From a virus: a stretch of DNA of 64,000 nucleotides. The DNA lies in IMG/VR virus record IMGVR_UViG_3300031576_000009, positions 37,721 to 101,720 of that record; one strand, 5' to 3'. The position numbers were made by a program, and so were the translations under genes. The notes beneath the pieces are model-generated. The model was not told the DNA's origin. It did not search any database and worked only from the letters and a program-made list of their open reading frames with translations. The number at the start of each line of letters is the position of its first letter. Positions within the stretch are counted from its first letter, which is position 1. Positions 2,034 to 51,963 of the stretch are shown piece by piece.

Positions 2034-2621
2034 TCAAATCTCCTGTGATCCCTTCTGCGCGATATTGACCTTACGTTTCACGCCGACCTTGAGGAGCTTC
2101 TTCAAGAGCTCCGGCTCCTTCACGACACGCATGATGACTTCCATGTTGCCGACCACGTTCCATTCCAGCCGCTCCAGGAAGAGCGGCGGTGGCTCGTAAA
2201 TGCGGTACAGGATGTTCGGCTGACCGTTCTGTGGGCGTGGATCGAAGTACTGCCAGGTGGCCTCGTTGAACCCCGGTCGCGTGTGCGTCGGGTCCTGGTA
2301 GGCACCGAACGAGCCTGCGTACGGTACCGAGATCAGCACCTGACAGCCATGCTTCCCGACCCGGTAGATTTCGGCCATGACCGCGAGGAAGTTCCGCGGA
2401 TCGATGTGCTCCAGGATATGGCTGGCGAGGATCGTGATGCAGCTGTCATTCGGGATCGGCCACGGCATCTTCTCCAAATCGTGGATGAAGTCCGCTTCGG
2501 GGATCGGACGCTTGTCCATCCCAACGTAGCCCTGCTGCTTCGCCCGACCACAGCCGATGTCGAGCTGGATGCCGCCCTTCTCATCGAGCAGCTTCTGCAG
2601 TTCGTCGTGTGCGACGGCCAT
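2034..2621 (-). CDS. class I SAM-dependent methyltransferase (type 11-like)
   Basis: LDIGCG motif I, SHILEHI, EIYRV, DPTH. Confidence 0.9.
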   Translation of the reverse strand: MAVAHDELQKLLDEKGGIQLDIGCGRAKQQGYVGMDKRPIPEADFIHDLEKMPWPIPNDSCITILASHILEHIDPRNFLAVMAEIYRVGKHGCQVLISVPYAGSFGAYQDPTHTRPGFNEATWQYFDPRPQNGQPNILYRIYEPPPLFLERLEWNVVGNMEVIMRVVKEPELLKKLLKVGVKRKVNIAQKGSQEI

Positions 2622-3347
2622 TCACGTACTCCTCTGTCGACGACGATCCCGAATCCGCTGCCAGAAGGACAGCGTCGGTGACGCCGTGATGTGGTACAGT
2701 CTGCGAATCTGGTGCGCCTGGCGCGTGGCAGGCAACGCAGTCGACGCGAGCGTGCCGGCCGCGAAGAGGATCGCACCCTTCCCGGAAACCTTTGGCTGCT
2801 CCTCGATGAGCCGCGGCTGACTCCGATGGTGCTGGAGCTTGATGCCGGTGTACGCCGTACCGACAGCTGCCGCCGCGAGCGGGACGACATGCCCGAGCAG
2901 AAAGCCCATGCGGGTGCTGGTCAGATTATTGCGCGACCATATCCGCTTCGGCGTGTAGATCGGAATCGAGTGGACGAGCGCGCGTTCACCTAGAAAGCTG
3001 CTGACGCCCAGCAGGGCTTGCCCCAAGAGCGCCTTCTTCTTCGTCCGCACGGTCTCGGAGGCCGGCTTCCCCCGGAACTTCTGAGCAAAAATTGTGCCAA
3101 TTACCGGTGCGGCGGCGTAGGCGGCCACATACGGACCCCATGCCTTGGGGAACTTCCGCAGGGGGACGTGGGAGACACTCTCACGGATCGCAAAACCACC
3201 CGCCAGGAGGCTCCCAGAGCCCACCAGAGCCATTTGCACGCCGGGGGATAGCTTCCCCCACCGACGCTTCACGACACGGGCTCCTCTGCGGACCTGACGC
3301 AGCCGAGCGAACATCGCCCGCCGCTGGTCGTCCGGGATGAGCCTCAC
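2622..3347 (-). CDS. Arg-rich protein with QRRAMFARL leader, several hydrophobic segments
   Basis: GTGA coupling; leader at residues 8-16. Confidence 0.8.
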   Translation of the reverse strand: MRLIPDDQRRAMFARLRQVRRGARVVKRRWGKLSPGVQMALVGSGSLLAGGFAIRESVSHVPLRKFPKAWGPYVAAYAAAPVIGTIFAQKFRGKPASETVRTKKKALLGQALLGVSSFLGERALVHSIPIYTPKRIWSRNNLTSTRMGFLLGHVVPLAAAAVGTAYTGIKLQHHRSQPRLIEEQPKVSGKGAILFAAGTLASTALPATRQAHQIRRLYHITASPTLSFWQRIRDRRRQRST

Positions 3348-3829
3348 AGGCGGAGCCTCGCCCGGAAGAGCCGCTGGACCCGGCCACTCGACCCGATGAG
3401 CCCTCCGATGAGCTGCGGCCCGACCTTCTCGATCTTCTGACGCTCTGTGCGGCGCCCGAGGATTGTCCGGCGGATGAGGTAATCCCCAAGCACGTAGGCC
3501 GGAATCTCGACCGCGGCCGTACGCAGGATGTTTCCCGCGAGTACGCGCCCACGTACGCGTGTGCGAAAGAGCTTCGTCCCGCGGCCCACGGCCCGCGCGG
3601 AGGCGCGCACGCCGAAGCGGCCGAAGAACTTGGTCACCGGGCGTGCAGCGCCGAGCCTGCTAGTCAGGTAGCCACCCACGGCGAAGGCCGGAATCGCGAT
3701 CGCGGTCTCGGTCACGTACGGATGGCGCTGATAGAACGAACGAGCGATTGCCTGACCTCGTGCGATGGGTCGAGCTCCACGGAGCCGAGCGAAGATTGCA
3801 CGACGCTGTTGTTCGTTCTGGAAGGTCAT
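3344..3829 (-). CDS. Arg-rich protein with QRRAIFARL leader
   Basis: Start re-called at MTFQNEQ (ATGA overlap with upstream stop). Confidence 0.8.
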   Translation of the reverse strand: MTFQNEQQRRAIFARLRGARPIARGQAIARSFYQRHPYVTETAIAIPAFAVGGYLTSRLGAARPVTKFFGRFGVRASARAVGRGTKLFRTRVRGRVLAGNILRTAAVEIPAYVLGDYLIRRTILGRRTERQKIEKVGPQLIGGLIGSSGRVQRLFRARLRL

Positions 3830-36725: not shown

Positions 36726-37070
36726 CTAGTTGTCTTCGTCGATCAAGGTCCCATTCGCGCGCTTCAGTGACTTCGTACGGAAGAAGCCCATGTGCTCCGC
36801 GTACTGCAACATGAAGAGTCGCGCGTAGAACGGGAAGTGACAGTTGCTGATCTTGAAGCCCTGGTACCGCTCAGGGTTGATCGCGGTCTCCCACCGCAGG
36901 CGCTGCAGGATCAGGTGCGCCCCAATGTGCTGATGCCCCGCACGGATCACCTGTCGCGTGAAGCGACAGAAGAGGCTGTACACATCGGCGTGTCGACGAT
37001 GATAGCGGGCGAAGTTGCGGAAGTGCTTCGCCTCGCCGACACGATCCTTCAGCGCCCTGAGCGGCGTCAT
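36726..37070 (-). CDS. conserved phage hypothetical protein
   Basis: VY-LF...RLRWE...FKISN...YARLF...FFR. Confidence 0.8.
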   Translation of the reverse strand: MTPLRALKDRVGEAKHFRNFARYHRRHADVYSLFCRFTRQVIRAGHQHIGAHLILQRLRWETAINPERYQGFKISNCHFPFYARLFMLQYAEHMGFFRTKSLKRANGTLIDEDN

Positions 37071-38185
37071 GCTGCCTCTTCGGTCCCGGTCGGTGAACGT
37101 TCGCCGTCGCTCTCTGCGATAGGTTGCTCTCCTCTCTGGCCGTAGGGGCGCATGAGCCCCTTGCGGCACGCGTAGGCGAGGAACTTCATCCGCGCCTTGT
37201 CAGGGCCACCGAGCTTCACGATAAGTGCAGGCCAGGTCACCCGCGTGCACTCCTCCTTCACCTTGCGCAGACGGAAGAGGTAGCGCGTCTTGCCCGCTGG
37301 GCTCTTCTTCCGCTCCTTCAGGATGCCGAGTTCGAGTGCGCCATCGAACAGGTCCTGGAGCTTGTCGATGCCGTTCACAAACTTCATCGTGTAGATGGCC
37401 TCGCGGAACGGCGGCGCGACCTTGTTCTTGATGATGGTCAGCCTATTGAGAAAGCCGCTCTTGTCCTCCAACCGTTTCCCTCGCTTGATCTCCACACGCA
37501 CCGTCGCGCGATAGCGCGGCACGTTCCCCCCACGCGTCTCCATCTCCGGTCCCATGTGCGCCGGCCGGTAGTTTCCGCTCCCGATCTTTGTGGAGAGCTG
37601 AGAGACGCAGACGAAGAGGCACTTGTACCGTGCCGCCATGTTCACGACCTCGGGAAGCAACAGCGCGATGTCAGCTGCCGCCCGAGCGATCGAGCTCTCC
37701 CCTGGTGCCAGGTTCTGCACCTTGCTGGACGGACGCCCGTCGAGGCTATCGAGAATCAGCGTGTGGATCGCAGTGGGGTTCTCCTTCCCGAACTCCCTGA
37801 TGTGATCTCGTGCTGAACAGAGCGCCTCTTCGAGCGTCCGCGGGTAGACCAGCTCCAGGTCTTCGAGGTTGACGCCGATCTCCTCCGCACGCTCCTCGTC
37901 GAACACGTCCTCAGTGTCGATCAGAGTCGCATGGCCACCGAGCCGTTGGGTCTCAGCGATGATGTGGTGAGAGAGCGTGCTCTTCCCGTGCCCGTCGAGA
38001 CCCATCAACTGGAACATGCGGCCTCGTGGCAGCCCTGGACGCCCGATCGCCAGATCGAGCATCAAGGACTGCGTGGAGATGCCACCAGGGACGTAGCCGA
38101 GCGCCTTGGCTTCCTTCTTCGTCGGGAAGACATCGGCGCCGTACTGCTTACGCAGTTTGTTCCGGTACTTCGTCTTAAACTTCAT
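37067..38185 (-). CDS. recA: RecA/UvsX-like recombinase
   Basis: LDLAIG-PGLPRGR, GLDGHGKST, IDTE, LDS, GG, KNKVAPPFR. Confidence 0.95.
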   Translation of the reverse strand: MKFKTKYRNKLRKQYGADVFPTKKEAKALGYVPGGISTQSLMLDLAIGRPGLPRGRMFQLMGLDGHGKSTLSHHIIAETQRLGGHATLIDTEDVFDEERAEEIGVNLEDLELVYPRTLEEALCSARDHIREFGKENPTAIHTLILDSLDGRPSSKVQNLAPGESSIARAAADIALLLPEVVNMAARYKCLFVCVSQLSTKIGSGNYRPAHMGPEMETRGGNVPRYRATVRVEIKRGKRLEDKSGFLNRLTIIKNKVAPPFREAIYTMKFVNGIDKLQDLFDGALELGILKERKKSPAGKTRYLFRLRKVKEECTRVTWPALIVKLGGPDKARMKFLAYACRKGLMRPYGQRGEQPIAESDGERSPTGTEEAA

Positions 38186-38317: not shown

Positions 38318-39211
38318 TTAGCCCCGTAGCCTCCGGCGGCGCCGCTCGCTCGCACCGACCTTTGACCGCTGCAGCCGGCGCTCCCGCCACACCATCTTGC
38401 AGCGACGGCGCACCGGGCACTCGATGCAAATCGGAAGCCCACGCACACCGTACTTCTCGCGACGGTAGGCACGTGGCTTCTTGTAGGACTTGCCGAAGCA
38501 CGGGTACTTCTCCGAGCGCGAGCTGCGCTCGGTGTCCTCGTCGTCGCGGCGAGTCGCCCCACTGCTCGTTGGCGTCATCCCGAGCGCCGCGCGCATCTCC
38601 TGCGCGTTCGGCAGCGAGATGAACTTGCGGAGGTTCTTCACCTTGCGGAGCCAACGCTTGTTCTGGATGCGGGTCGCGGTGTGCTTCACCTTCGCATCGT
38701 ATAGCGGTGGCGCCTTGCCGCGATCGGTCACGATGATCACGACGTTCTTGCCACGCCGCGGATGGGTGAAGTCGCCACAGTCGGGATCGGCCCAGGCCGT
38801 CAGCATGTCGGTCATGACCTTGTCGCTGTACGTCCGCCACACCTGCACGCCGTGCTCGGGATGATTCAGGTCGACGAGGTTCATGAAGTACACGCTCTTC
38901 GCCTGTATCCGCTCGCTCATCGACACATCTTCCACGTCTTCGCTCGATGCGAGCTCCTCGGCCTTCTCACAGCCGGGGCACGGCTTGTTGGTCAGCTCCA
39001 GGCACGTGTGCACGGTCCCACGGCCCGTCTGCCCACCCCACGGGAAGTAGTGTTGCTTGCCCTCGAAGTAGAACGTCTCGTTGTCGCCCCACGGAAGCAT
39101 CCGGATGGGGTTCTCACCAGCCACGGGCTTCCAGAACCGCTTCCTTTTCTCGTTGAGCTCCTTCAACTTCTTGCGAATGGTATCGAGCCTGTTGCCGGTC
39201 GAAGAAATCAT
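38318..39211 (-). CDS. gp32-like single-stranded DNA-binding protein with basic Cys-containing tail
   Basis: FWKP...IRMLP...H...C...CPGCE...YFMN; position between pol and recA. Confidence 0.8.
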   Translation of the reverse strand: MISSTGNRLDTIRKKLKELNEKRKRFWKPVAGENPIRMLPWGDNETFYFEGKQHYFPWGGQTGRGTVHTCLELTNKPCPGCEKAEELASSEDVEDVSMSERIQAKSVYFMNLVDLNHPEHGVQVWRTYSDKVMTDMLTAWADPDCGDFTHPRRGKNVVIIVTDRGKAPPLYDAKVKHTATRIQNKRWLRKVKNLRKFISLPNAQEMRAALGMTPTSSGATRRDDEDTERSSRSEKYPCFGKSYKKPRAYRREKYGVRGLPICIECPVRRRCKMVWRERRLQRSKVGASERRRRRLRG

Positions 39212-40677
39212 GCCGCCTCCTTCACGTCCTCTGGATAGACCACCTGTGCTGATCGCTCCGCCTCACCCCAACGGTCAGCGGTACCGATCTCCATCGCGAA
39301 GCGGTAGTTGTCGAGCTGAGGAACTGGACGCGTCATCTCCTCAGACATGATCTCGCGCACAGCGCGACGCTCGGCGCGAGGATGCTCCACGATGATGTTG
39401 TCGTACACGAGATTCACCGGCCACGCCTTCATCCTGTACTTCTCGAAGCGCGCACAGATGCGGTTCATGGACCGGAACGTCAACTCCGCTGCTGCGTTCT
39501 GTGGAAAGAAGTCTCGGGCCTGCCGACGCAGGTGATTCAGCTGCGCCTCGTCGTGGTAGTCCGTCACCACGAAGCGACGCTTGCGGCCGAACGGGCTCGT
39601 GATCACCTTCTCCTGGATCGCGAGTTCCGCGATCCCGTCGAGGAAGCCACAGGTGAGCGGGAACTGCCCGGCGAAGCCCTCCATCGCTCCGGCGATCAGA
39701 TCGACGGGCGCTCCGGTGAACGCCGCGATGCCCTCGGCTGAGCCGCCGTACAGGAACCCACCGAAGACGATGCCCTTCGAGAGCGTACGGATGGTCTTGT
39801 TCGGCTTCTCGTTACGCGGGACCTTGAAAACGGTCCAGGCGACCTCGTTGTGGAAGTCACGGCGTTCCCTGAAGATCAGCAGCATCTTCTCGTCGCCCGC
39901 GATCACCGCGATCGCCACGAGTTCCGCCTGCTTCACGTCCGCACTCGTCAGCTCACAGCCTGGTGCCGCGATGAACATATCGCGCAGGCTGAAGACCTCG
40001 TCGTCCTTCAGCTCCAGGAACGGGTAGTCGTTGTGGTCCTTGTCGCGCGGCATGGTCGCGAGTGGCGGCTCCTTCGAGCTGACACGACCGCTGACCTGCG
40101 CGCCCACCTGAAAGAGCGTGTGCACACGGTGAGTCTTGTCGATCCACTTCTCCAGGCCGGGGGCGTAGTTGCTCTGCAGCTTCGAGGCACGCGCCCAGTT
40201 GATGCAGTGGCGCAGGATGGGGTGCTGGTACTTCTCGAACAGCTTCTCCAGGATTTTGCGATCGGTGGTGTACTGGCCGGTAGTCGTGAGGGGAACCTTG
40301 GGATCATCGGTGGGGATGCCCACGACATCGAAGATGACGCGGGCCTTCTGCGCAGGCGCGTTGAGGTTGATTCGCTCTCCGGCGATCTCTTCGATCTTCG
40401 ACTGAATCCGACGCGTGACGGTTTCGAGTCGATCCGCGATCTCGAACATGCGAGTCTTGTCGACGCGCATGCCCATGAGACCGGAGCGGAGCAGGTTGCT
40501 GCAGAGGGGACGCGAGGCGGTGTGGAAGTACTCCTTCATGCCCTGTTCCTTCAGTCGGCGCTTGAGCACCTTCCACACGCGAAACGCCGCATCCGCGTCG
40601 GTCGCAGCGTACTCGTGGAGGATTTCGGGCGGGATCAGGGCTGCATCCCGCGCGCCGAGTAGGCCACGAGATTTCAT
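39208..40677 (-). CDS. family A DNA polymerase, C-terminal piece (ExoIII + polymerase)
   Basis: YAATD (ExoIII), SGRVSS, motif A DVKQAEL, motif B R-LSKGIVFG-LYG, motif C VYD. Confidence 0.95.
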   Translation of the reverse strand: MKSRGLLGARDAALIPPEILHEYAATDADAAFRVWKVLKRRLKEQGMKEYFHTASRPLCSNLLRSGLMGMRVDKTRMFEIADRLETVTRRIQSKIEEIAGERINLNAPAQKARVIFDVVGIPTDDPKVPLTTTGQYTTDRKILEKLFEKYQHPILRHCINWARASKLQSNYAPGLEKWIDKTHRVHTLFQVGAQVSGRVSSKEPPLATMPRDKDHNDYPFLELKDDEVFSLRDMFIAAPGCELTSADVKQAELVAIAVIAGDEKMLLIFRERRDFHNEVAWTVFKVPRNEKPNKTIRTLSKGIVFGGFLYGGSAEGIAAFTGAPVDLIAGAMEGFAGQFPLTCGFLDGIAELAIQEKVITSPFGRKRRFVVTDYHDEAQLNHLRRQARDFFPQNAAAELTFRSMNRICARFEKYRMKAWPVNLVYDNIIVEHPRAERRAVREIMSEEMTRPVPQLDNYRFAMEIGTADRWGEAERSAQVVYPEDVKEAA

Positions 40678-41180
40678 ACGTGGCTCCAAAGCTTCCTGCA
40701 CACGATACGACGGCAGGTTGATGTGCTGACGCCAAAGCGCTTGGCAAGGCTTCCAGTTGATACGCCCTCTCTCGCCAGCACCCGTAGCTGCCGCACCTTA
40801 CGAGCGCTCAATCGTGCCGCTGCATTCCGCTCACCGCGCGGGGCGCGATGAGGGTGCAATCTGAACCCATGACGATCGCCACGAGCAGTTCTTCCCCTCT
40901 CATCACGATCACGCACATTGTCTAGATTACTGCCTTCGCGAAGATGAAGCGGTTGAACACACGGTGGATTGTCGCACGAGTGCAGCAGCTGCCTCATCGG
41001 CCACGTCCCATACGTCAAGTACCAGGCGACGTGCGTTGCACGTCGCATCTTCCCATCATAGCGAACCTGACCATAACCATCTCGATCCATCGACCTTACC
41101 CAAAGCCAACAGCTGTCAGGCGAGTCAGGCTGACGTACGCCTGCCCAAAACTCCTTGGGACCATTCGGACGTTGAGGCAT
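40674..41180 (-). CDS. HNH homing endonuclease inserted in polymerase gene
   Basis: CWLW, GYG, HSCDNPPCVQPLHL, DN, C-terminal HTH. Confidence 0.95.
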   Translation of the reverse strand: MPQRPNGPKEFWAGVRQPDSPDSCWLWVRSMDRDGYGQVRYDGKMRRATHVAWYLTYGTWPMRQLLHSCDNPPCVQPLHLREGSNLDNVRDRDERGRTARGDRHGFRLHPHRAPRGERNAAARLSARKVRQLRVLAREGVSTGSLAKRFGVSTSTCRRIVCRKLWSHV

Positions 41181-42310
41181 TATGCCGCCTCCTTCCGCTT
41201 CTTCTGCTTCCTGAGCTTCGAGAGCTTCTTGGCCATGCGTGTTTTGTAGTTGCCAAGATCGGTGAAGAGGAACGCAAGCGTCTCCAGGTCCTTGAAGCTG
41301 TTCTCGTCGATCAGGTTCATCATGACCAGGAGATCACGGAAGTTGATCTTGTACACGTCGATGTCGATCCGCGAGAGGAACCGTAGGTCGAAAGGTGCGT
41401 TCTGGATCACCCAGATCGTCTTGGGGTCCTCGAACTTGCGCTTCAGTCGACTGCGGATCACCTCCCACTGGTGCGCGGTCCAGACCTCGACGCGCTTAAA
41501 GCCGTAACGTGGTAGCACCCACGCCTCGTACTCCTTCCACGAGAAAGACATGCACTGGATGTTGGCCCGCTGGTAGTCAAGCGCGGTGCCCACGATTCGC
41601 TGGAGCTTCGTACGGAAGGCACTCGTCTCCGAGTCGAACGCGATCACCTTCTGACGATCGAGCTCATCGAGGAACACCAGGGCCTCTCCGAACGTCTGAC
41701 AGATGCGGTACACGACGGGGTGTCGTGGTGTTGCCCGGCCTCCTGTCGCGACGCGGTACGCGCGTTCCAGATCGCGTACGACGACACCCCGGTAGCCTTC
41801 GTTGCCACGGAGTAGGTACGCTGGATGGAAGGTCGGCAGCACCTTCGGCGCCGTTGGGAGGAGGTCGATTGGTTCATGGAGCTCTCCACGCGCCTTGGTG
41901 ATACCTGACTTCCCGACGGTTGAGCGAAGGGCCACGTCCCCGAGCGCCACCAATAACTTCGGAGCGACGCGCCGAATCTCGACATTCAGCCGCTGACGGC
42001 AACAGGCGATCGCCTGGTCGATGTCCTTCCCCTGCTTCTTCATGTCGATGGGGATTTGGCACTTCAACGCGTTGGCGATGTACACCTCGTCTCGGTCGAT
42101 CTTCGGCTCCGTCTCGTCGAGCAGTCCGTTCAAGTACTGCCCGGCTCGTCCGTAGAAGGGGCGACCCGTTCTCACCTCCTCCCAGCTCGGGGCTTCACCG
42201 ACGAACATGATTTTCGCGTCGGGTGGCCCTTCACTCATGACCATCGGGGCACGATAGAGAGGACACTGCTCACAGATGGCAACTTTCTCTTCTCGCAGTA
42301 CGCCGCCCAT
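41180..42310 (-). CDS. DNA polymerase N-terminal piece: family 4 uracil-DNA glycosylase + 3'-5' exonuclease (ExoI/II)
   Basis: CEQC, GEAP, GRPFYGRAG, FHPAYLLR; AFDSET (ExoI), QNAPFD (ExoII). Confidence 0.92.
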   Translation of the reverse strand: MGGVLREEKVAICEQCPLYRAPMVMSEGPPDAKIMFVGEAPSWEEVRTGRPFYGRAGQYLNGLLDETEPKIDRDEVYIANALKCQIPIDMKKQGKDIDQAIACCRQRLNVEIRRVAPKLLVALGDVALRSTVGKSGITKARGELHEPIDLLPTAPKVLPTFHPAYLLRGNEGYRGVVVRDLERAYRVATGGRATPRHPVVYRICQTFGEALVFLDELDRQKVIAFDSETSAFRTKLQRIVGTALDYQRANIQCMSFSWKEYEAWVLPRYGFKRVEVWTAHQWEVIRSRLKRKFEDPKTIWVIQNAPFDLRFLSRIDIDVYKINFRDLLVMMNLIDENSFKDLETLAFLFTDLGNYKTRMAKKLSKLRKQKKRKEAA

Positions 42311-43305
42311 TAGAGCACCCGCTCCATCGCACCACTCACAGACACTTCCCAGATTGAGGACCGATTCCCGTACTTTGAACGGAACGCACGATCCACGAGC
42401 TTCTGAAACAGATGGCGGGCGAAGTGATCTGGCTGCGGCTTCTCCGCTGGCAAGATCAGACCCGCCGTCGGATAGCACTCGCGGAGCTTCTCCCACGCTG
42501 CTCGTGCCGGAGAGACCTTACTACGGCCGGGGGTGTCCCACGCGTCGCGATCCCACGCGAGCACGATCTGTCGGATGTACCGCTTCTGATCAGCCAGACA
42601 CAGCAGTTGCTTCTCGGAGAGCTTCTTCCCAAACGTCGCGAGCCCCTGGTACATGAGCGCGGGGATCACACCTTCGACCAAGATCACGCGCCCCATCGTC
42701 AGGTACGCTTGTGGATATAGGACACGCGCTGATGGGAAGCCCCTCGGGAAGCGGTACTTCGGCTCCTCCTTACCGATCGTGCGCGCCTGGAAGCCGACGA
42801 GCTGATTGCCCCAGACGACCGGAAACACGACCCGTCGCGCGTATGGCCCTGTAGGGCAGTAGCGCAGCTGGAACGTGAGGGCCTCACGGATGCTGAGACC
42901 ACGCTTCTCGATGAACTCGATCGCCTCGGGGAACTTCCACGCGGGATGGCAGTGTGGTGGAAGCTCGCCGGGCAGTAGCCCGTCCGCAGAACGTTGACCG
43001 ACCTCGGTCGTCATGGCTCGCAGGTCCCGCACCTTCGGGGCGGCGTCGAGTTCGAACCGCTTCGGCAAGTTGAGATCGCGAATCAACCGCTCGAACGAGA
43101 AGTTCTCCTTGCAGCGCTGACAATGCCCCAACCGCTTCACCAGGTTGACGTACAGATGCTTCTCTTTACCGCAGTCGGGGCAGTCGAGCATCACCTCGTT
43201 CGAGTGGAACACGTGCTGGTACGGCACATGCGCCGCGTTCAGCATACGCAAGAGGATCGGCGTCTGTCGCGCCGGATCAGCTAGCCGGGTTGCTACCGTC
43301 GCCAT
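42310..43305 (-). CDS. DNA primase (zinc ribbon + TOPRIM)
   Basis: CPDC..H..CQRC, RVVFP, FQAR, KY, ILVEG, WDRD. Confidence 0.9.
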   Translation of the reverse strand: MATVATRLADPARQTPILLRMLNAAHVPYQHVFHSNEVMLDCPDCGKEKHLYVNLVKRLGHCQRCKENFSFERLIRDLNLPKRFELDAAPKVRDLRAMTTEVGQRSADGLLPGELPPHCHPAWKFPEAIEFIEKRGLSIREALTFQLRYCPTGPYARRVVFPVVWGNQLVGFQARTIGKEEPKYRFPRGFPSARVLYPQAYLTMGRVILVEGVIPALMYQGLATFGKKLSEKQLLCLADQKRYIRQIVLAWDRDAWDTPGRSKVSPARAAWEKLRECYPTAGLILPAEKPQPDHFARHLFQKLVDRAFRSKYGNRSSIWEVSVSGAMERVL

Positions 43306-43550: not shown

Positions 43551-44870
43551 CTAAACCATTGGTCGGGCATAGAAGGCCCCCTTGCTGAAGTTGGTTCGCA
43601 CCTTCATCGTGTGGCCGTCGCCACCGTGCGTGTACTTGGCTAGGTGCAGACGCGCGACCTCCTTCTTCTTCTCCTCCGGGGTGCGGTTGATGCTGACGAC
43701 CAGGGTTGCCTCCATCACCGCGCCGTACGACTCGGCGGTGTCCTCGACAGTCACGACCTCGTTCGAGCGCGATCCCCGGTTACCCTGGAACGCCGTCCAG
43801 CCGATGAGCCGGTACTTCTGGCAAAAGGCGATCCACTCGGACATCACGGACTGGAGCGCCAGGTAGCGGTTCTCCATCGTCTGCACGGTGTCGTAGAAGC
43901 TCGGGATCATGTAGTTGACAAAGTCGACCACGATCACGTGTGGCGTGAAGCCGTTCGCGATGCACTGCTGTACGTGCGCATCGAGCGTGTGTGGCCCCGC
44001 CTTGTGGCGCTGGAAGTACTTGAGCAGGATGCAGTCGCCGTAGATGCGGCCGAAGCGGGTCACGTTCTTCAGCACCGTCTTCGGCATATGCGCGAGATCG
44101 TGCTGCTTTACCCCACCAAGCGAGGCATCGAGTATCTCGGCGATGTCGTCCTCAGGGAGCTGCAACGTGTAGTAGATCACGTTGCGCCTCTGGAGCGCGG
44201 CTGCCTTCGCCAGGTGACAGAGGAAGCGGGTCTTACCCGCACCAGTAGGAGCGAGCGCGCACCCTGTCTCCCCAGACCGTAGGCCACCGTTGCGCAGCCG
44301 ATCGTCGAGCTGCTGGATCAGCGTTTTGACAACGAGCCGAGGAATCTTCAGCCGATTGCGTACACGCTGGCTGACAGTGGACACGTAGAACGTACCGATC
44401 CCAGTACCGTCCGAATCACCGTTCAGCAGTGCCTTGCCGAAGAGCGTACGAACACCACCGAGATCACCCTTCTCCATCAGCGGGAGCGCGTCGCGGTGGG
44501 CGATGATCAGCTGCTGCATCGAGGCAAAGTCGCGGGCGTGACGTAGCAAGAATTGCACCTCGGACTCACGTTTGATCCTGTGCTTCTTCAGCTTGCGGAA
44601 AATCTCACGGAAGAAGTTGCGTTCTTCACGGTCGGGGAGTTGGGAAAAGATGCGCTCGCGGAGGACGCGGCGCGTGGGAAGGTGGCCGAGCTCCCGGAAG
44701 GAATCCCGAAGCTCCTGCCAGACGAGCGGGATGCCCGGAGTCGAGAAGTGCTCTGGGGCGAGGATATCTAGCGTCGTCGCGAGCCGAGGATCGCCGTCGA
44801 TGATCCCCGCAGCGAGCGCGTACTGAAACCCGTCAGAGAGCGGTACGCGTTTGCCGACGGACGACTTCAT
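43551..44870 (-). CDS. DnaB/gp41-like replicative helicase
   Basis: APTGAGKT, VIVVDF, WTAFQGNR, AES. Confidence 0.92.
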   Translation of the reverse strand: MKSSVGKRVPLSDGFQYALAAGIIDGDPRLATTLDILAPEHFSTPGIPLVWQELRDSFRELGHLPTRRVLRERIFSQLPDREERNFFREIFRKLKKHRIKRESEVQFLLRHARDFASMQQLIIAHRDALPLMEKGDLGGVRTLFGKALLNGDSDGTGIGTFYVSTVSQRVRNRLKIPRLVVKTLIQQLDDRLRNGGLRSGETGCALAPTGAGKTRFLCHLAKAAALQRRNVIYYTLQLPEDDIAEILDASLGGVKQHDLAHMPKTVLKNVTRFGRIYGDCILLKYFQRHKAGPHTLDAHVQQCIANGFTPHVIVVDFVNYMIPSFYDTVQTMENRYLALQSVMSEWIAFCQKYRLIGWTAFQGNRGSRSNEVVTVEDTAESYGAVMEATLVVSINRTPEEKKKEVARLHLAKYTHGGDGHTMKVRTNFSKGAFYARPMV

Positions 44871-45331: not shown

Positions 45332-46849
45332 TCATGAAAGAGAACGAGCCGCGTTCTTCGCGGTGTACTGATTGAGGTTCGTGAACGGGATATCTTCGAC
45401 ATCTTCGACACTGCGGATGACATAGCCCTCCTCGCGGTACACCTTGAGCCGATCTCGGCTGTGACGAGCGAAGTACGGACTCATCTGATCATCGAAATCG
45501 ATCAAGTACAGTTCGTTGATAACCTTCTTCTTGCGCATGCCGCGCCCAGGTATCTGCAGGCTCGCGATCTGGGACTTCCCGCCATCAAGTCGGACGATGC
45601 AGCGGATCACCGGCACGTCGATCCCCATGTGGAAGATGCCCGACGCGATCACGATCCGGGTCTCTTCGCGGCGCATCGCATCAAGATAGTGCTTCCGACG
45701 CTCTGCTGGATCGCGGTAGCAGAGGAACGGCACGCGCATTCCGTACGAGCGAAACATGCGACGCAGTACTTCACCGTGCGCCCGCTTCTGAACCAGCAGG
45801 AGCGTAATCCACCCCGACTCGGCTGCATGCAGCGCGGCGGCGATCCCGAGCTTGTTGCGATACTCGTTGTGATGGATCGCGAGCCGCTCGGCAGCCGCGT
45901 AGCGTGCCTGAGTCCGTGGCTGCGTGACCTTGAACATGAACACGGAAACCTTCGAGAGCAGCCCACAGGCCCGGAGCTTGCGTGAGGGGAGATGGTAGAG
46001 CACGTCCCCAAACGTTCCCGTGAGGAACCAGTCGCCCAGGTCCTCGGTCCGACGGAGCAGCGAACCACCAAACGCCAGACGCACGAAGGCTCGTGGGCAT
46101 GCCCGCACGATGTCCTGGTACACGTTGTCTGAAACGAGGTGCGCTTCGTCGACCACGACGGTCCGAATACGATGCAAAAAAGAAAGGACCCGTGAGTCCT
46201 CTTGGCGAACTCGGGGTCCTAGTGTCTGGATCATAGCCATGGTGATCTGCTTCGGGTCCCAGCGGCCCATACCGATCTGTCCGATCTCCTGTCCGGTGAG
46301 CAAACGATACACGTCGGCCCCCTGCAGGAGGAGATCACGGCGCGGGACGAGATAGAGCGAATGACCGCCGAACATTTGGCAGGCCCAGAAGGCGGTCACG
46401 GTCTTCCCCGAGCCGGTCGGCATGGAGATGAGCCCACGCGGCCAAGGGAGCTGATTGCGGCCCACCGTCTGTCGAGCGACAGCGCGGATAGCCAGGTGTT
46501 GCAGTACACACTGTACGGGATGGATGTCGAAGCCACGGCTGCGAAGCAGCGTAGCCCAACGTTCGGGAGGGAGTACTACAGAGGGAGCGTGCAGCGCGCG
46601 ACGATCGATAATCTTCGAGTGCACGTCGTTTTCGGTGAGAACCTCCAGCGCGTATGGCAGGAGGCCCGAAGGGAAGAGCTTGGTAACCTTGTTGTAGAAC
46701 TTTCGGCGGCCGTCCCAGTGATGCTGTTGGTAGGCCTTGGTCCAGTAGTAGTTCGGCTGAGTGAAGGCGAGCGCTTCGGAGAGCGCGTTCTCGCTGCGCT
46801 TGCTCGCAGAGAGTACTCGACAGTCTCCGTTCGTGAGTGCGATCTTCAT
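45332..46849 (-). CDS. SF2 DEAH helicase (UvsW-like)
   Basis: PTGSGKT, DEAH, GIDVP, QIPGRGMR. Confidence 0.95.
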   Translation of the reverse strand: MKIALTNGDCRVLSASKRSENALSEALAFTQPNYYWTKAYQQHHWDGRRKFYNKVTKLFPSGLLPYALEVLTENDVHSKIIDRRALHAPSVVLPPERWATLLRSRGFDIHPVQCVLQHLAIRAVARQTVGRNQLPWPRGLISMPTGSGKTVTAFWACQMFGGHSLYLVPRRDLLLQGADVYRLLTGQEIGQIGMGRWDPKQITMAMIQTLGPRVRQEDSRVLSFLHRIRTVVVDEAHLVSDNVYQDIVRACPRAFVRLAFGGSLLRRTEDLGDWFLTGTFGDVLYHLPSRKLRACGLLSKVSVFMFKVTQPRTQARYAAAERLAIHHNEYRNKLGIAAALHAAESGWITLLLVQKRAHGEVLRRMFRSYGMRVPFLCYRDPAERRKHYLDAMRREETRIVIASGIFHMGIDVPVIRCIVRLDGGKSQIASLQIPGRGMRKKKVINELYLIDFDDQMSPYFARHSRDRLKVYREEGYVIRSVEDVEDIPFTNLNQYTAKNAARSLS

Positions 46850-51115: not shown

Positions 51116-51137
51116 CCCTCATTGTTTGGTTGCAAAC

Positions 51138-51181
51138 AAAAAAAAGAGGGAGAGCCTATCTTTCGACCGACCCTCCCTCTT
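51138..51181 (-). terminator. intrinsic terminator
   Basis: AAGAGGGAG/CTCCCTCTT stem followed by T-run. Confidence 0.75.
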
Positions 51182-51204
51182 GGCGGAGCTCCGGGGTGGG
51201 GCTC

Positions 51205-51909
51205 CTACTTTGCGGCAACTGCCGTCTTGCCGTTGGTCTTCGCGCGCTTCAGCTTCTTCCGACGGTGGGGCGCCATCGGGATCACCTTCCCCTTGACGCC
51301 GTTGATCTTGTACTTCCCGTTCTTGCCACGCTCGATCTTCAGGCCACGCCTCTTCAGGCGATAGAGCTGCACGCGAACCGTGTTGCCGATCCCGATCGCC
51401 CCGTGCTTCGGGAACGCCTTCTGCACGGCCGCACACAGCTCGTGATACGTGGCACCCTTCCCCAGCACCTCCGTGATCACCGCGACCTCGGTCCCGTTTC
51501 GCACTCCGTACTTGTTCTGGCCCATCGGTACTTTCCGCTTGGCCGCCTTCTTGTTCTTCACGTCGAGCTCCTCCGTGATCCTTGCGCGGATCACCTCGAA
51601 CTGATCCGCGAACCAATTGAACATGAACGGGCTCAAGAGGCCTAGCGCCGTGAAGATGTGATGCGCCACGCTCAGCTCCATCCACTCGCGCGAGAGGACG
51701 AAGACGCCTCCCGTCGCGAGGAAGTAGAGCCGGCGCAGCTTGCGCTCGGAGATCAACTCCAGGCGCTGCATCACCGCCACCATCGGCACACCAGGTGCCC
51801 ATGGCGGAACGAGGAGTTCCTCGCGGTTCAACCCCAACTCTACGAGGACTGGTCGTAGCCAGCGGCGCGAGGGAATCCTCGCCAGCTTGACCTTGGAACG
51901 ACGCTTCAT
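51205..51909 (-). CDS. basic protein with probable C-terminal winged-helix domain
   Basis: ATYHELC...TVRVQLYRLKRRGLKIER...YKI; AGGAGG RBS. Confidence 0.7.
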   Translation of the reverse strand: MKRRSKVKLARIPSRRWLRPVLVELGLNREELLVPPWAPGVPMVAVMQRLELISERKLRRLYFLATGGVFVLSREWMELSVAHHIFTALGLLSPFMFNWFADQFEVIRARITEELDVKNKKAAKRKVPMGQNKYGVRNGTEVAVITEVLGKGATYHELCAAVQKAFPKHGAIGIGNTVRVQLYRLKRRGLKIERGKNGKYKINGVKGKVIPMAPHRRKKLKRAKTNGKTAVAAK

Positions 51910-51963
51910 CGTACGGCCTCCTTGTACAGGTCTGAGTACACATCGGTTCTATACAAATGGTGC

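Follow-up and report, generated by a model that had tools for sequence, protein, structure and literature searches.

A family A phage DNA polymerase encoded in two pieces, with a free-standing HNH endonuclease gene at the junction

The 64-kb stretch of viral DNA described here (hereafter, the window) comprises bases 37721-101720 of a 101,720-bp IMG/VR viral contig (record IMGVR_UViG_3300031576_000009), the completeness of which is estimated at 79%. It encodes a family A DNA polymerase of the UDG-Exo-PolA type (uracil-DNA glycosylase, 3'-5' exonuclease and polymerase) as two separate pieces, hereafter Pol-N and Pol-C, with a gene for an HNH endonuclease between them. We consider it probable that this is an anciently split, two-subunit polymerase with a composite DEDD exonuclease site, the junction of which was later colonised by a free-standing homing endonuclease gene.

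Anatomy of the two-piece polymerase

All features described below are on the minus strand. Pol-N (piece 1, 376 amino acids; 41180..42310, with its ATG at 42310 and its TAA at 41182-41180) carries a UDG domain (Pfam PF03167, 5.9e-26, 91.7 bits against a curated cut-off of 24.3), which places it in the family-4-type UDG superfamily, with predicted activity. This is followed by the N-terminal two thirds of a DEDD 3'-5' exonuclease fold (DNA_pol_A_exo1, PF01612, 1.1e-08, covering profile positions 5-148 of 173). The ExoI motif of Pol-N is D226-S-E228 (41635-41627) and its ExoII motif, QNAPFD, provides N304 (41401-41399) and D308 (41389-41387). The ExoIII residues, Y23 (40611-40609) and D27 (40599-40597), are in Pol-C (piece 2, 489 amino acids; 39208..40677, with its ATG at 40677 and its TGA at 39210-39208). 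The DEDD(y) set, i.e., the ExoI D-x-E, ExoII, and the ExoIII Y-x3-D, is complete only when both chains are counted, and the motifs predict exonuclease activity. Pol-C also matches nearly the full DNA_pol_A profile (PF00476, 2.1e-62, profile positions 6-381 of 381), as expected of a family A member, and includes the thumb, palm and fingers with D247 of motif A, R297, K301 and F305 of motif B, and Y425-D426 of motif C. Pol-C matched the PDB profile of the Klenow fragment at 1.3e-85, and the PHROG 17 polymerase profile is shared out between the pieces (positions 476-788 in Pol-N, 800-1233 in Pol-C). The coordinates and motifs given in the original prediction are thus confirmed, as is its reading that the polymerase is translated as two separate proteins with the cut falling after ExoII and before ExoIII.

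The intact gene between the two pieces (40674..41180) encodes a free-standing protein of 168 amino acids with an HNH_3 domain and a C-terminal helix-turn-helix (HTH), as recognised by Pfam and PHROG. As also predicted, this open reading frame (ORF) abuts both pieces. Its junction with Pol-N reads TAATG (41182-41178), a 1-base overlap, and its junction with Pol-C reads ATGA (40677-40674), a 4-base overlap, which leaves zero non-coding room between Pol-N, the HNH gene and Pol-C.

Age of the split and arrival of the HNH gene

The split is old and clade-wide. We searched Pol-C against 1.84 billion representative proteins, and its best matches, apart from a 174-amino-acid fragment (P0130), are proteins of 463-504 amino acids whose first residues aligned to Pol-C residues 1-10. 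The identity of these short homologs to Pol-C runs from 52% down to 31%, a range that P0135 extends to 28%, and fused enzymes (about 760-900 amino acids) appear among the matches only at 32% identity or lower. The Met start of all the short homologs falls in one alignment column, approximately 20 residues ahead of Y-x3-D. A tree was built from the Pol-C region of 88 sequences (quick IQ-TREE search, midpoint root; P0130, P0143 and P0175 were left out for their short coverage). It groups the window with 11 further split forms in a single clade with a Shimodaira-Hasegawa-like approximate likelihood ratio (SH-aLRT) support of 98. The neighbours of this clade are fused UDG-exo-pol enzymes, and branch lengths within it are about 0.4-1.3 changes per column.

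Two full-length relatives of Pol-N were found, P0002 (51% identity, 380 amino acids) and P0003 (50% identity, 391 amino acids). They end in ...LGNYKTRMAKKAQEARQ and ...LGNYKVRLAKKLAEM...REKAG, respectively, and thus stop at the same place as Pol-N. A protein search with the exonuclease region matched only the window's own protein and P0002. No clade member was found in the viral contig collection when it was scanned with the polymerase pieces, their alignments, or P0271, and none in the scans of the genome contig collection.

In a different and mostly fused PolA lineage, P0171 (489 amino acids) has its Met start inside the ExoII-ExoIII linker, approximately 20 residues upstream of the window's break. 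The linker may be a recurrent break point, the alternative for P0171 being a mis-called start.

The contig of P0002 (hereafter, L002), recovered by a metagenome scan, is syntenic with the window and shows the junction in a split relative that has no HNH gene. It encodes a primase related to that of the window, two extra small ORFs, Pol-N (2403-3545) and Pol-C, in this order. Its Pol-N (51% identity) ends in ...GNYKTRMAKKAQEARQ, and the TGA overlaps the ATG of the following ORF (caATGAgt, 3542-3545). The latter begins MSILGHKDIALVNTKVAYEYAAADADA and reads MSILGHKDIALVNTKVAYEYAAADADAAFR... to the end of the contig, which corresponds to the start of Pol-C. At one common site, therefore, the window has an HNH gene and L002 has an empty junction with the stop/start overlap ATGA. 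The extra ORFs of L002 (1294-1911, 205 amino acids; 2053-2406, 117 amino acids) are not found at that position in the window, and the part of L002 that was read is more AT-rich by eye. The other four loci from the metagenome scan matched over the UDG part only (one of them, L003, is a cellular UDG gene).

Very little is left over when the pieces are set against fused enzymes. In BLASTP against the fused enzyme P0132, Pol-N residues 4-371 align to residues 1-367 and Pol-C residues 8-476 to residues 370-818; the pieces are thus collinear with it, as they are with the fused P0147, P0209 and P0234. Only about 2-10 residues are unaccounted for when the pieces are compared with fused homologs. A MAFFT alignment of the concatenated pieces and 15 fused enzymes places AKKLSKLRKQKK..RKEAA in a charged linker of variable length, which in the fused enzymes connects the G-x-Y turn with the ExoIII helix, and in the Klenow alignment position 11 of the Pol-C profile is the I of IALEEAGRYAAEDAD. 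From the collinearity and these two alignments, the break sits in the loop immediately before the ExoIII helix, apparently a surface loop that tolerates a cut.

The basic C-terminal tail of Pol-N, AKKLSKLRKQKKRKEAA (41183..41233), had been taken for a new addition. Judging from the alignment with uninterrupted homologs it is native linker rather than an addition, and AKK... tails are also present at the Pol-N ends of P0002 and P0003. The 8-mers CACGCATG (41234-41241) and CACGTATG (40675-40682), which encode R-M and had been proposed to mark the insertion point, are both present. We rejected them as matched insertion sites: CACGYATG occurs at chance frequency (8 in the window against 5.3 expected, with 17 of 100 shuffles reaching as many), and the ...TRM-KSRG... 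join would remove native sequence.

The HNH gene is foreign in composition. Its GC contents at third and second codon positions (GC3 and GC2) are 0.544 and 0.556, compared with 0.73-0.86 and 0.39-0.47 in seven neighbour genes, and its GC3 is the third lowest among 67 non-overlapping ORFs. It is so far from the codon usage of its host that we regard it as a recent arrival, whereas the split in the host gene spans roughly one substitution per site. The protein matches HNH_3 (PF13392) at 25.8 bits in a six-frame search, above the cut-off, and at 23.3 bits on the protein itself, just below 24.8; it matches the PHROG 1872 endonuclease at 7.5e-25. C24, Y36-G37, H67, C69, D70, C74, H79 and N88 are invariant in the family and N71 is nearly so. 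With these core residues and the C-terminal HTH as DNA-binding module it belongs to the free-standing HNH_3 family, and both cleavage and homing are predicted.

By tblastn, relatives of the HNH protein are encoded in 1,395 phage records at 34-40% identity, annotated "HNH endonuclease" (phages of Gordonia, Mycobacterium, Ralstonia and others), which points to a widespread family of free-standing phage endonucleases. The best IMG/VR relatives have 42% identity, and among 5.8 billion protein clusters there is no non-self homolog above 49%. The gene is the sole HNH_3 gene in the contig. A 123-amino-acid HNH_3 protein, P0380, was not used; its sources differ from those of P0003 and P0121, and it could not be placed. 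The window's HNH protein is on record from a 75,521-bp contig and Pol-N from the 101,720-bp contig; it seems that one phage was assembled repeatedly, or that the HNH gene was called differently.

The original prediction held that the HNH gene made the cut, and it named an HNH-free relative already split at this site as an observation that would refute this. L002, syntenic and with a Pol-N 51% identical to that of the window, is such a relative, and the split is common to a 12-member clade; the causal part of the prediction is therefore not supported. In a variant of it, an HNH or other endonuclease gene was inserted into the fused polymerase gene of the clade ancestor, L002 having lost it cleanly and the window having kept it or been re-invaded at the same hot spot. 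Insertion of an endonuclease is the documented route to split phage genes of this kind (PMC2988022, PMC3045599), the HNH gene is exactly at the junction, and repeated gain and loss would be expected to leave it, as here, present in the window and absent from L002 at one site. However, the split is as deep as the branch lengths above, yet the codon usage of the HNH gene has not drifted towards that of the host; none of the protein clusters searched holds a close homolog of the HNH protein, and the tails owe nothing to an insert. At most a different, earlier endonuclease was involved, and it left no trace. We regard this account as unlikely, though deserving of some weight.

The sequence of events that we favour starts from a clade in which the UDG-Exo-PolA polymerase would long have been encoded as two translationally coupled genes. 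A foreign HNH gene would have settled later exactly at the pre-existing junction, disrupting no codon and keeping the stop/start coupling on both sides; at a cistron boundary it would cost its host nothing. From its family and from the presence/absence pattern, the gene presumably spreads by intronless homing, in which it would cut co-infecting HNH-free relatives at or near their empty junctions.

Several points weigh against this reading. The break could go back to an endonuclease in the ancestor that was later lost or replaced, since composition dates the present HNH copy only. The context of the junction comes from L002 alone, and that contig stops 100 bases into Pol-C. The HNH protein of the window has THV where the family consensus is AHR, and Q for the frequent N of CVNP, so its activity is not certain. 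The assembly and activity of the polymerase are predicted from a model and from conserved residues, as described below.

Predicted two-chain assembly without splicing

A complex of Pol-C with Pol-N residues 195-376 was modelled with a score of 0.91, compared with 0.01 for the best of three controls. Among solved complexes, 58 of 80 score this high, as do two of 110 mismatched pairs (with our own alignments used here, the counts hold roughly). At least 85% of contacts recur between runs, and the predicted local distance difference test (pLDDT) value of the partner is at least 85. In the model, Pol-C residues 7-67 (the ExoIII helix and the stretch after it) face Pol-N residues 199-366, a range that takes in the surroundings of ExoI and ExoII. 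The modelling of both pieces, suggested in the original prediction as a check, thus supports their binding to each other. The pass may, however, reflect a resemblance to known structures rather than binding of these particular copies, because the two halves of this fold have been solved many times as one chain. The two-chain proofreading site that had been anticipated is likely. Pol-N and Pol-C would be made separately by coupled translation and would assemble without splicing. The ExoIII helix of Pol-C would complete the DnaQ-like fold of Pol-N, and the proofreading site would therefore be made of two chains.

We find it barely credible that a single polypeptide is restored across the HNH gene by RNA splicing, protein splicing, ribosomal bypass or frameshifting. 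SPO1-type polymerase genes are known hosts of group I introns that carry HNH genes (refs 42-43 cited in PMC10580990), and tightly abutting ORFs could in principle hide a compact element. Against this, an Rfam search of 38500-43000 at a permissive threshold (E up to 10) gave no intron match, the two matches listed being far below their gathering scores; a group I intron would thus have neither a covariance-model core nor non-coding flanks here. Pfam searches of Pol-N, the HNH protein and Pol-C found no Hint or intein domain, and the collinearity of the pieces with fused homologs leaves no excess sequence for the halves of a split intein. Both results agree with the absence of an intron or intein that had been predicted from the sequence.

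Splicing and ribosomal bypass had been kept in the original prediction as alternatives, and L002 bears on them directly: without the HNH gene it still has two cistrons that overlap out of frame, and splicing would have no insert to take out. We also know of no precedent for a ribosomal bypass of 504 bases, which counts further against restoration. Among sequencing runs, no RNA dataset is listed with this stretch, which is contained in full only in a cave metagenome, the probable source of the DNA. The contigs of that metagenome include no variant joining the pieces across the HNH gene, which has no bearing either way.

The catalytic residues of ExoI, ExoII and ExoIII and of polymerase motifs A, B and C are kept throughout the split clade, with D247, R297, K301, F305 and D426 of Pol-C invariant, and the 101.7-kb contig has no PolA besides the split one. 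Because of this conservation and the lack of a second PolA, we argue that the two-chain enzyme is probably the working replicase.

Motif C (39397-39405, Pol-C residues 425-427) is Y-D-N in the window; across the split clade it takes the form Y-D-[S/A/N/D], the usual form being H-D-E. The second acidic residue of the motif (Klenow E883) is missing.

It is very improbable that a selfish element has broken the polymerase gene and left it non-functional and in decay. In favour of this, the gene is interrupted and its motif C is YDN rather than the usual HDE. However, both pieces are intact ORFs, their catalytic residues are conserved in 12 lineages down to 28% identity, and they provide the only PolA of the contig from within a complete replication operon; YD[N/S/A/D] is clade-wide and therefore no private lesion.

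A further possibility, which we think rather doubtful, is that the split is a working design, with the UDG-plus-proofreading module as a separate, dissociable subunit and the ExoIII helix as its docking element. If so, proofreading and uracil sensing would be tunable by subunit stoichiometry or exchange, and the cistron boundary would be a safe landing site for homing endonucleases.

The polymerase genes lie in a replication operon on the minus strand. Upstream are genes for a superfamily 2 (SF2) helicase (45332-46849), a DnaB-like helicase (43551-44870) and a primase (42310..43305; PHROG 47 DNA primase, 1.6e-30), the TAA of which overlaps the ATG of Pol-N (TAATG). Downstream are a gene for a single-stranded DNA-binding (SSB)-like protein (38318..39211; PHROG 1192 single strand DNA binding protein, 2.7e-19), the ATG of which overlaps the TGA of Pol-C (ATGA), and a RecA-like gene (37067-38185). 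From the primase through to the SSB-like gene, the stop codon of each gene overlaps the start codon of the next (TAATG, TAATG, ATGA and ATGA, in this order).

A 14-mer, GAAGGAGGCGGCAT, is present on the minus strand in only two copies in the window, even with 2 mismatches allowed, one at the 3' end of Pol-N (41182..41195) and one at the 3' end of Pol-C (39210..39223). Both copies encode ..KEAA together with the Shine-Dalgarno sequence of the next gene, and the first also includes part of the stop. With the HNH ORF notionally excised, the Pol-N/Pol-C and Pol-C/SSB junctions read GAAGGAGGCGGCATGAAATCT and GAAGGAGGCGGCATGATTTCT, and the flanks joined without the HNH gene read ...GGCGGCATGAAATCT... 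The repetition could be due to gene conversion, a common endonuclease target, or convergence. Elsewhere in the window, a 274-amino-acid ORF without a Pfam match (51119-51943, minus strand) has the lowest GC3 (0.433, compared with a median of 0.72) and may be a further foreign gene.

Comparison with known split and interrupted genes

The reading we favour would add a family A polymerase to the short list of essential phage enzymes that are encoded as two genes and have a selfish endonuclege gene lodged between them. A less appreciated order of events is also suggested, in which an old, stable and clade-wide split gene serves as a harmless landing site and the endonuclease comes later. For annotation, Pol-N and Pol-C would be better described as two subunits of one polymerase than as a broken gene. 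For enzymology, the predicted natural two-chain DEDD proofreading site and its break-tolerant loop could guide the engineering of split polymerases.

Other phage polymerases are interrupted by HNH genes in different ways. In SPO1-type polymerase genes, I-HmuI-type group I introns with HNH genes are spliced as RNA (refs 42-43 of PMC10580990). There, as in the window, a polymerase of the UDG-Exo-PolA type is targeted by an HNH gene, whereas the window has no intron core and no spacer. The family A polymerase of Listeria phage P70 (L015, JX442241 32111-35166) is annotated as gp38 and gp41, with the HNH gene gp39 and the small ORF gp40 between them, non-coding flanks of approximately 117 bases, and a second HNH gene, gp42, directly after the polymerase. 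The PolA of Listeria phage LP-114 is likewise interrupted by an HNH gene, and close relatives (LP-010 and others) are uninterrupted. Like the window, they have an HNH coding sequence (CDS) between two CDS of a phage polymerase of family A, both annotated there as 'DNA polymerase'. In contrast, the Listeria cut lies inside the polymerase domain and is a recent polymorphism among near-identical phages rather than a clade-wide trait, and the extra small ORF and non-coding flanks of P70 make an intron possible there.

The fractured genes of Dassa et al. 2009 (PMC2677866) likewise have two halves flanking a free-standing homing endonuclease ORF. Their halves carry parts of a split intein and are ligated by trans-splicing, whereas the window has neither intein sequence nor room for it.

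The precedent named in the original prediction was nrdA of phage Aeh1, split by mobE. In nrdA-a/mobE/nrdA-b of Aeh1, too, the two parts of an essential gene flank a free-standing HNH gene; there is no splicing, and a functional enzyme is reassembled from the pieces (PMC3045599, PMC2988022). The tails differ. By the title and abstract of PMC3045599, the Aeh1 pieces assemble via interaction domains derived from the mobile element, whereas the tail of Pol-N belongs to the native linker and is found also where the HNH gene is absent, in L002/P0002 and in P0003. In Aeh1 the insertion is taken as the cause of the split.

The nearest parallel among known genes is the family B polymerase gene (gene 43) of Aeromonas phages 25 and 44RR. 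In phage 25 a seg-like homing endonuclease gene lies between 43A and 43B (Petrov, Ratnayaka and Karam 2010, as reviewed in PMC2988022), and phage 44RR has the same 43A/43B split without the endonuclease gene. The reviewers note that the gene may already have been split when the endonuclease entered it, and that the 43A and 43B pieces co-purify and are active (PMC2988022). Common to both cases are a phage replicative polymerase in two cistrons and an endonuclease gene in the gap of one relative and not the other. They differ in that the polymerase is of family A here and of family B there, the split site is different, and the HNH-free L002 has a 4-base ATGA overlap where the endonuclease-free Aeromonas form has an untranslated spacer; moreover, the cut here runs through the DEDD exonuclease fold and is the defining trait of a 12-cluster clade. 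What is particular to the window is thus a clade-defining cut through the PolA DEDD fold, for which the evidence favours the split first and the endonuclease later.

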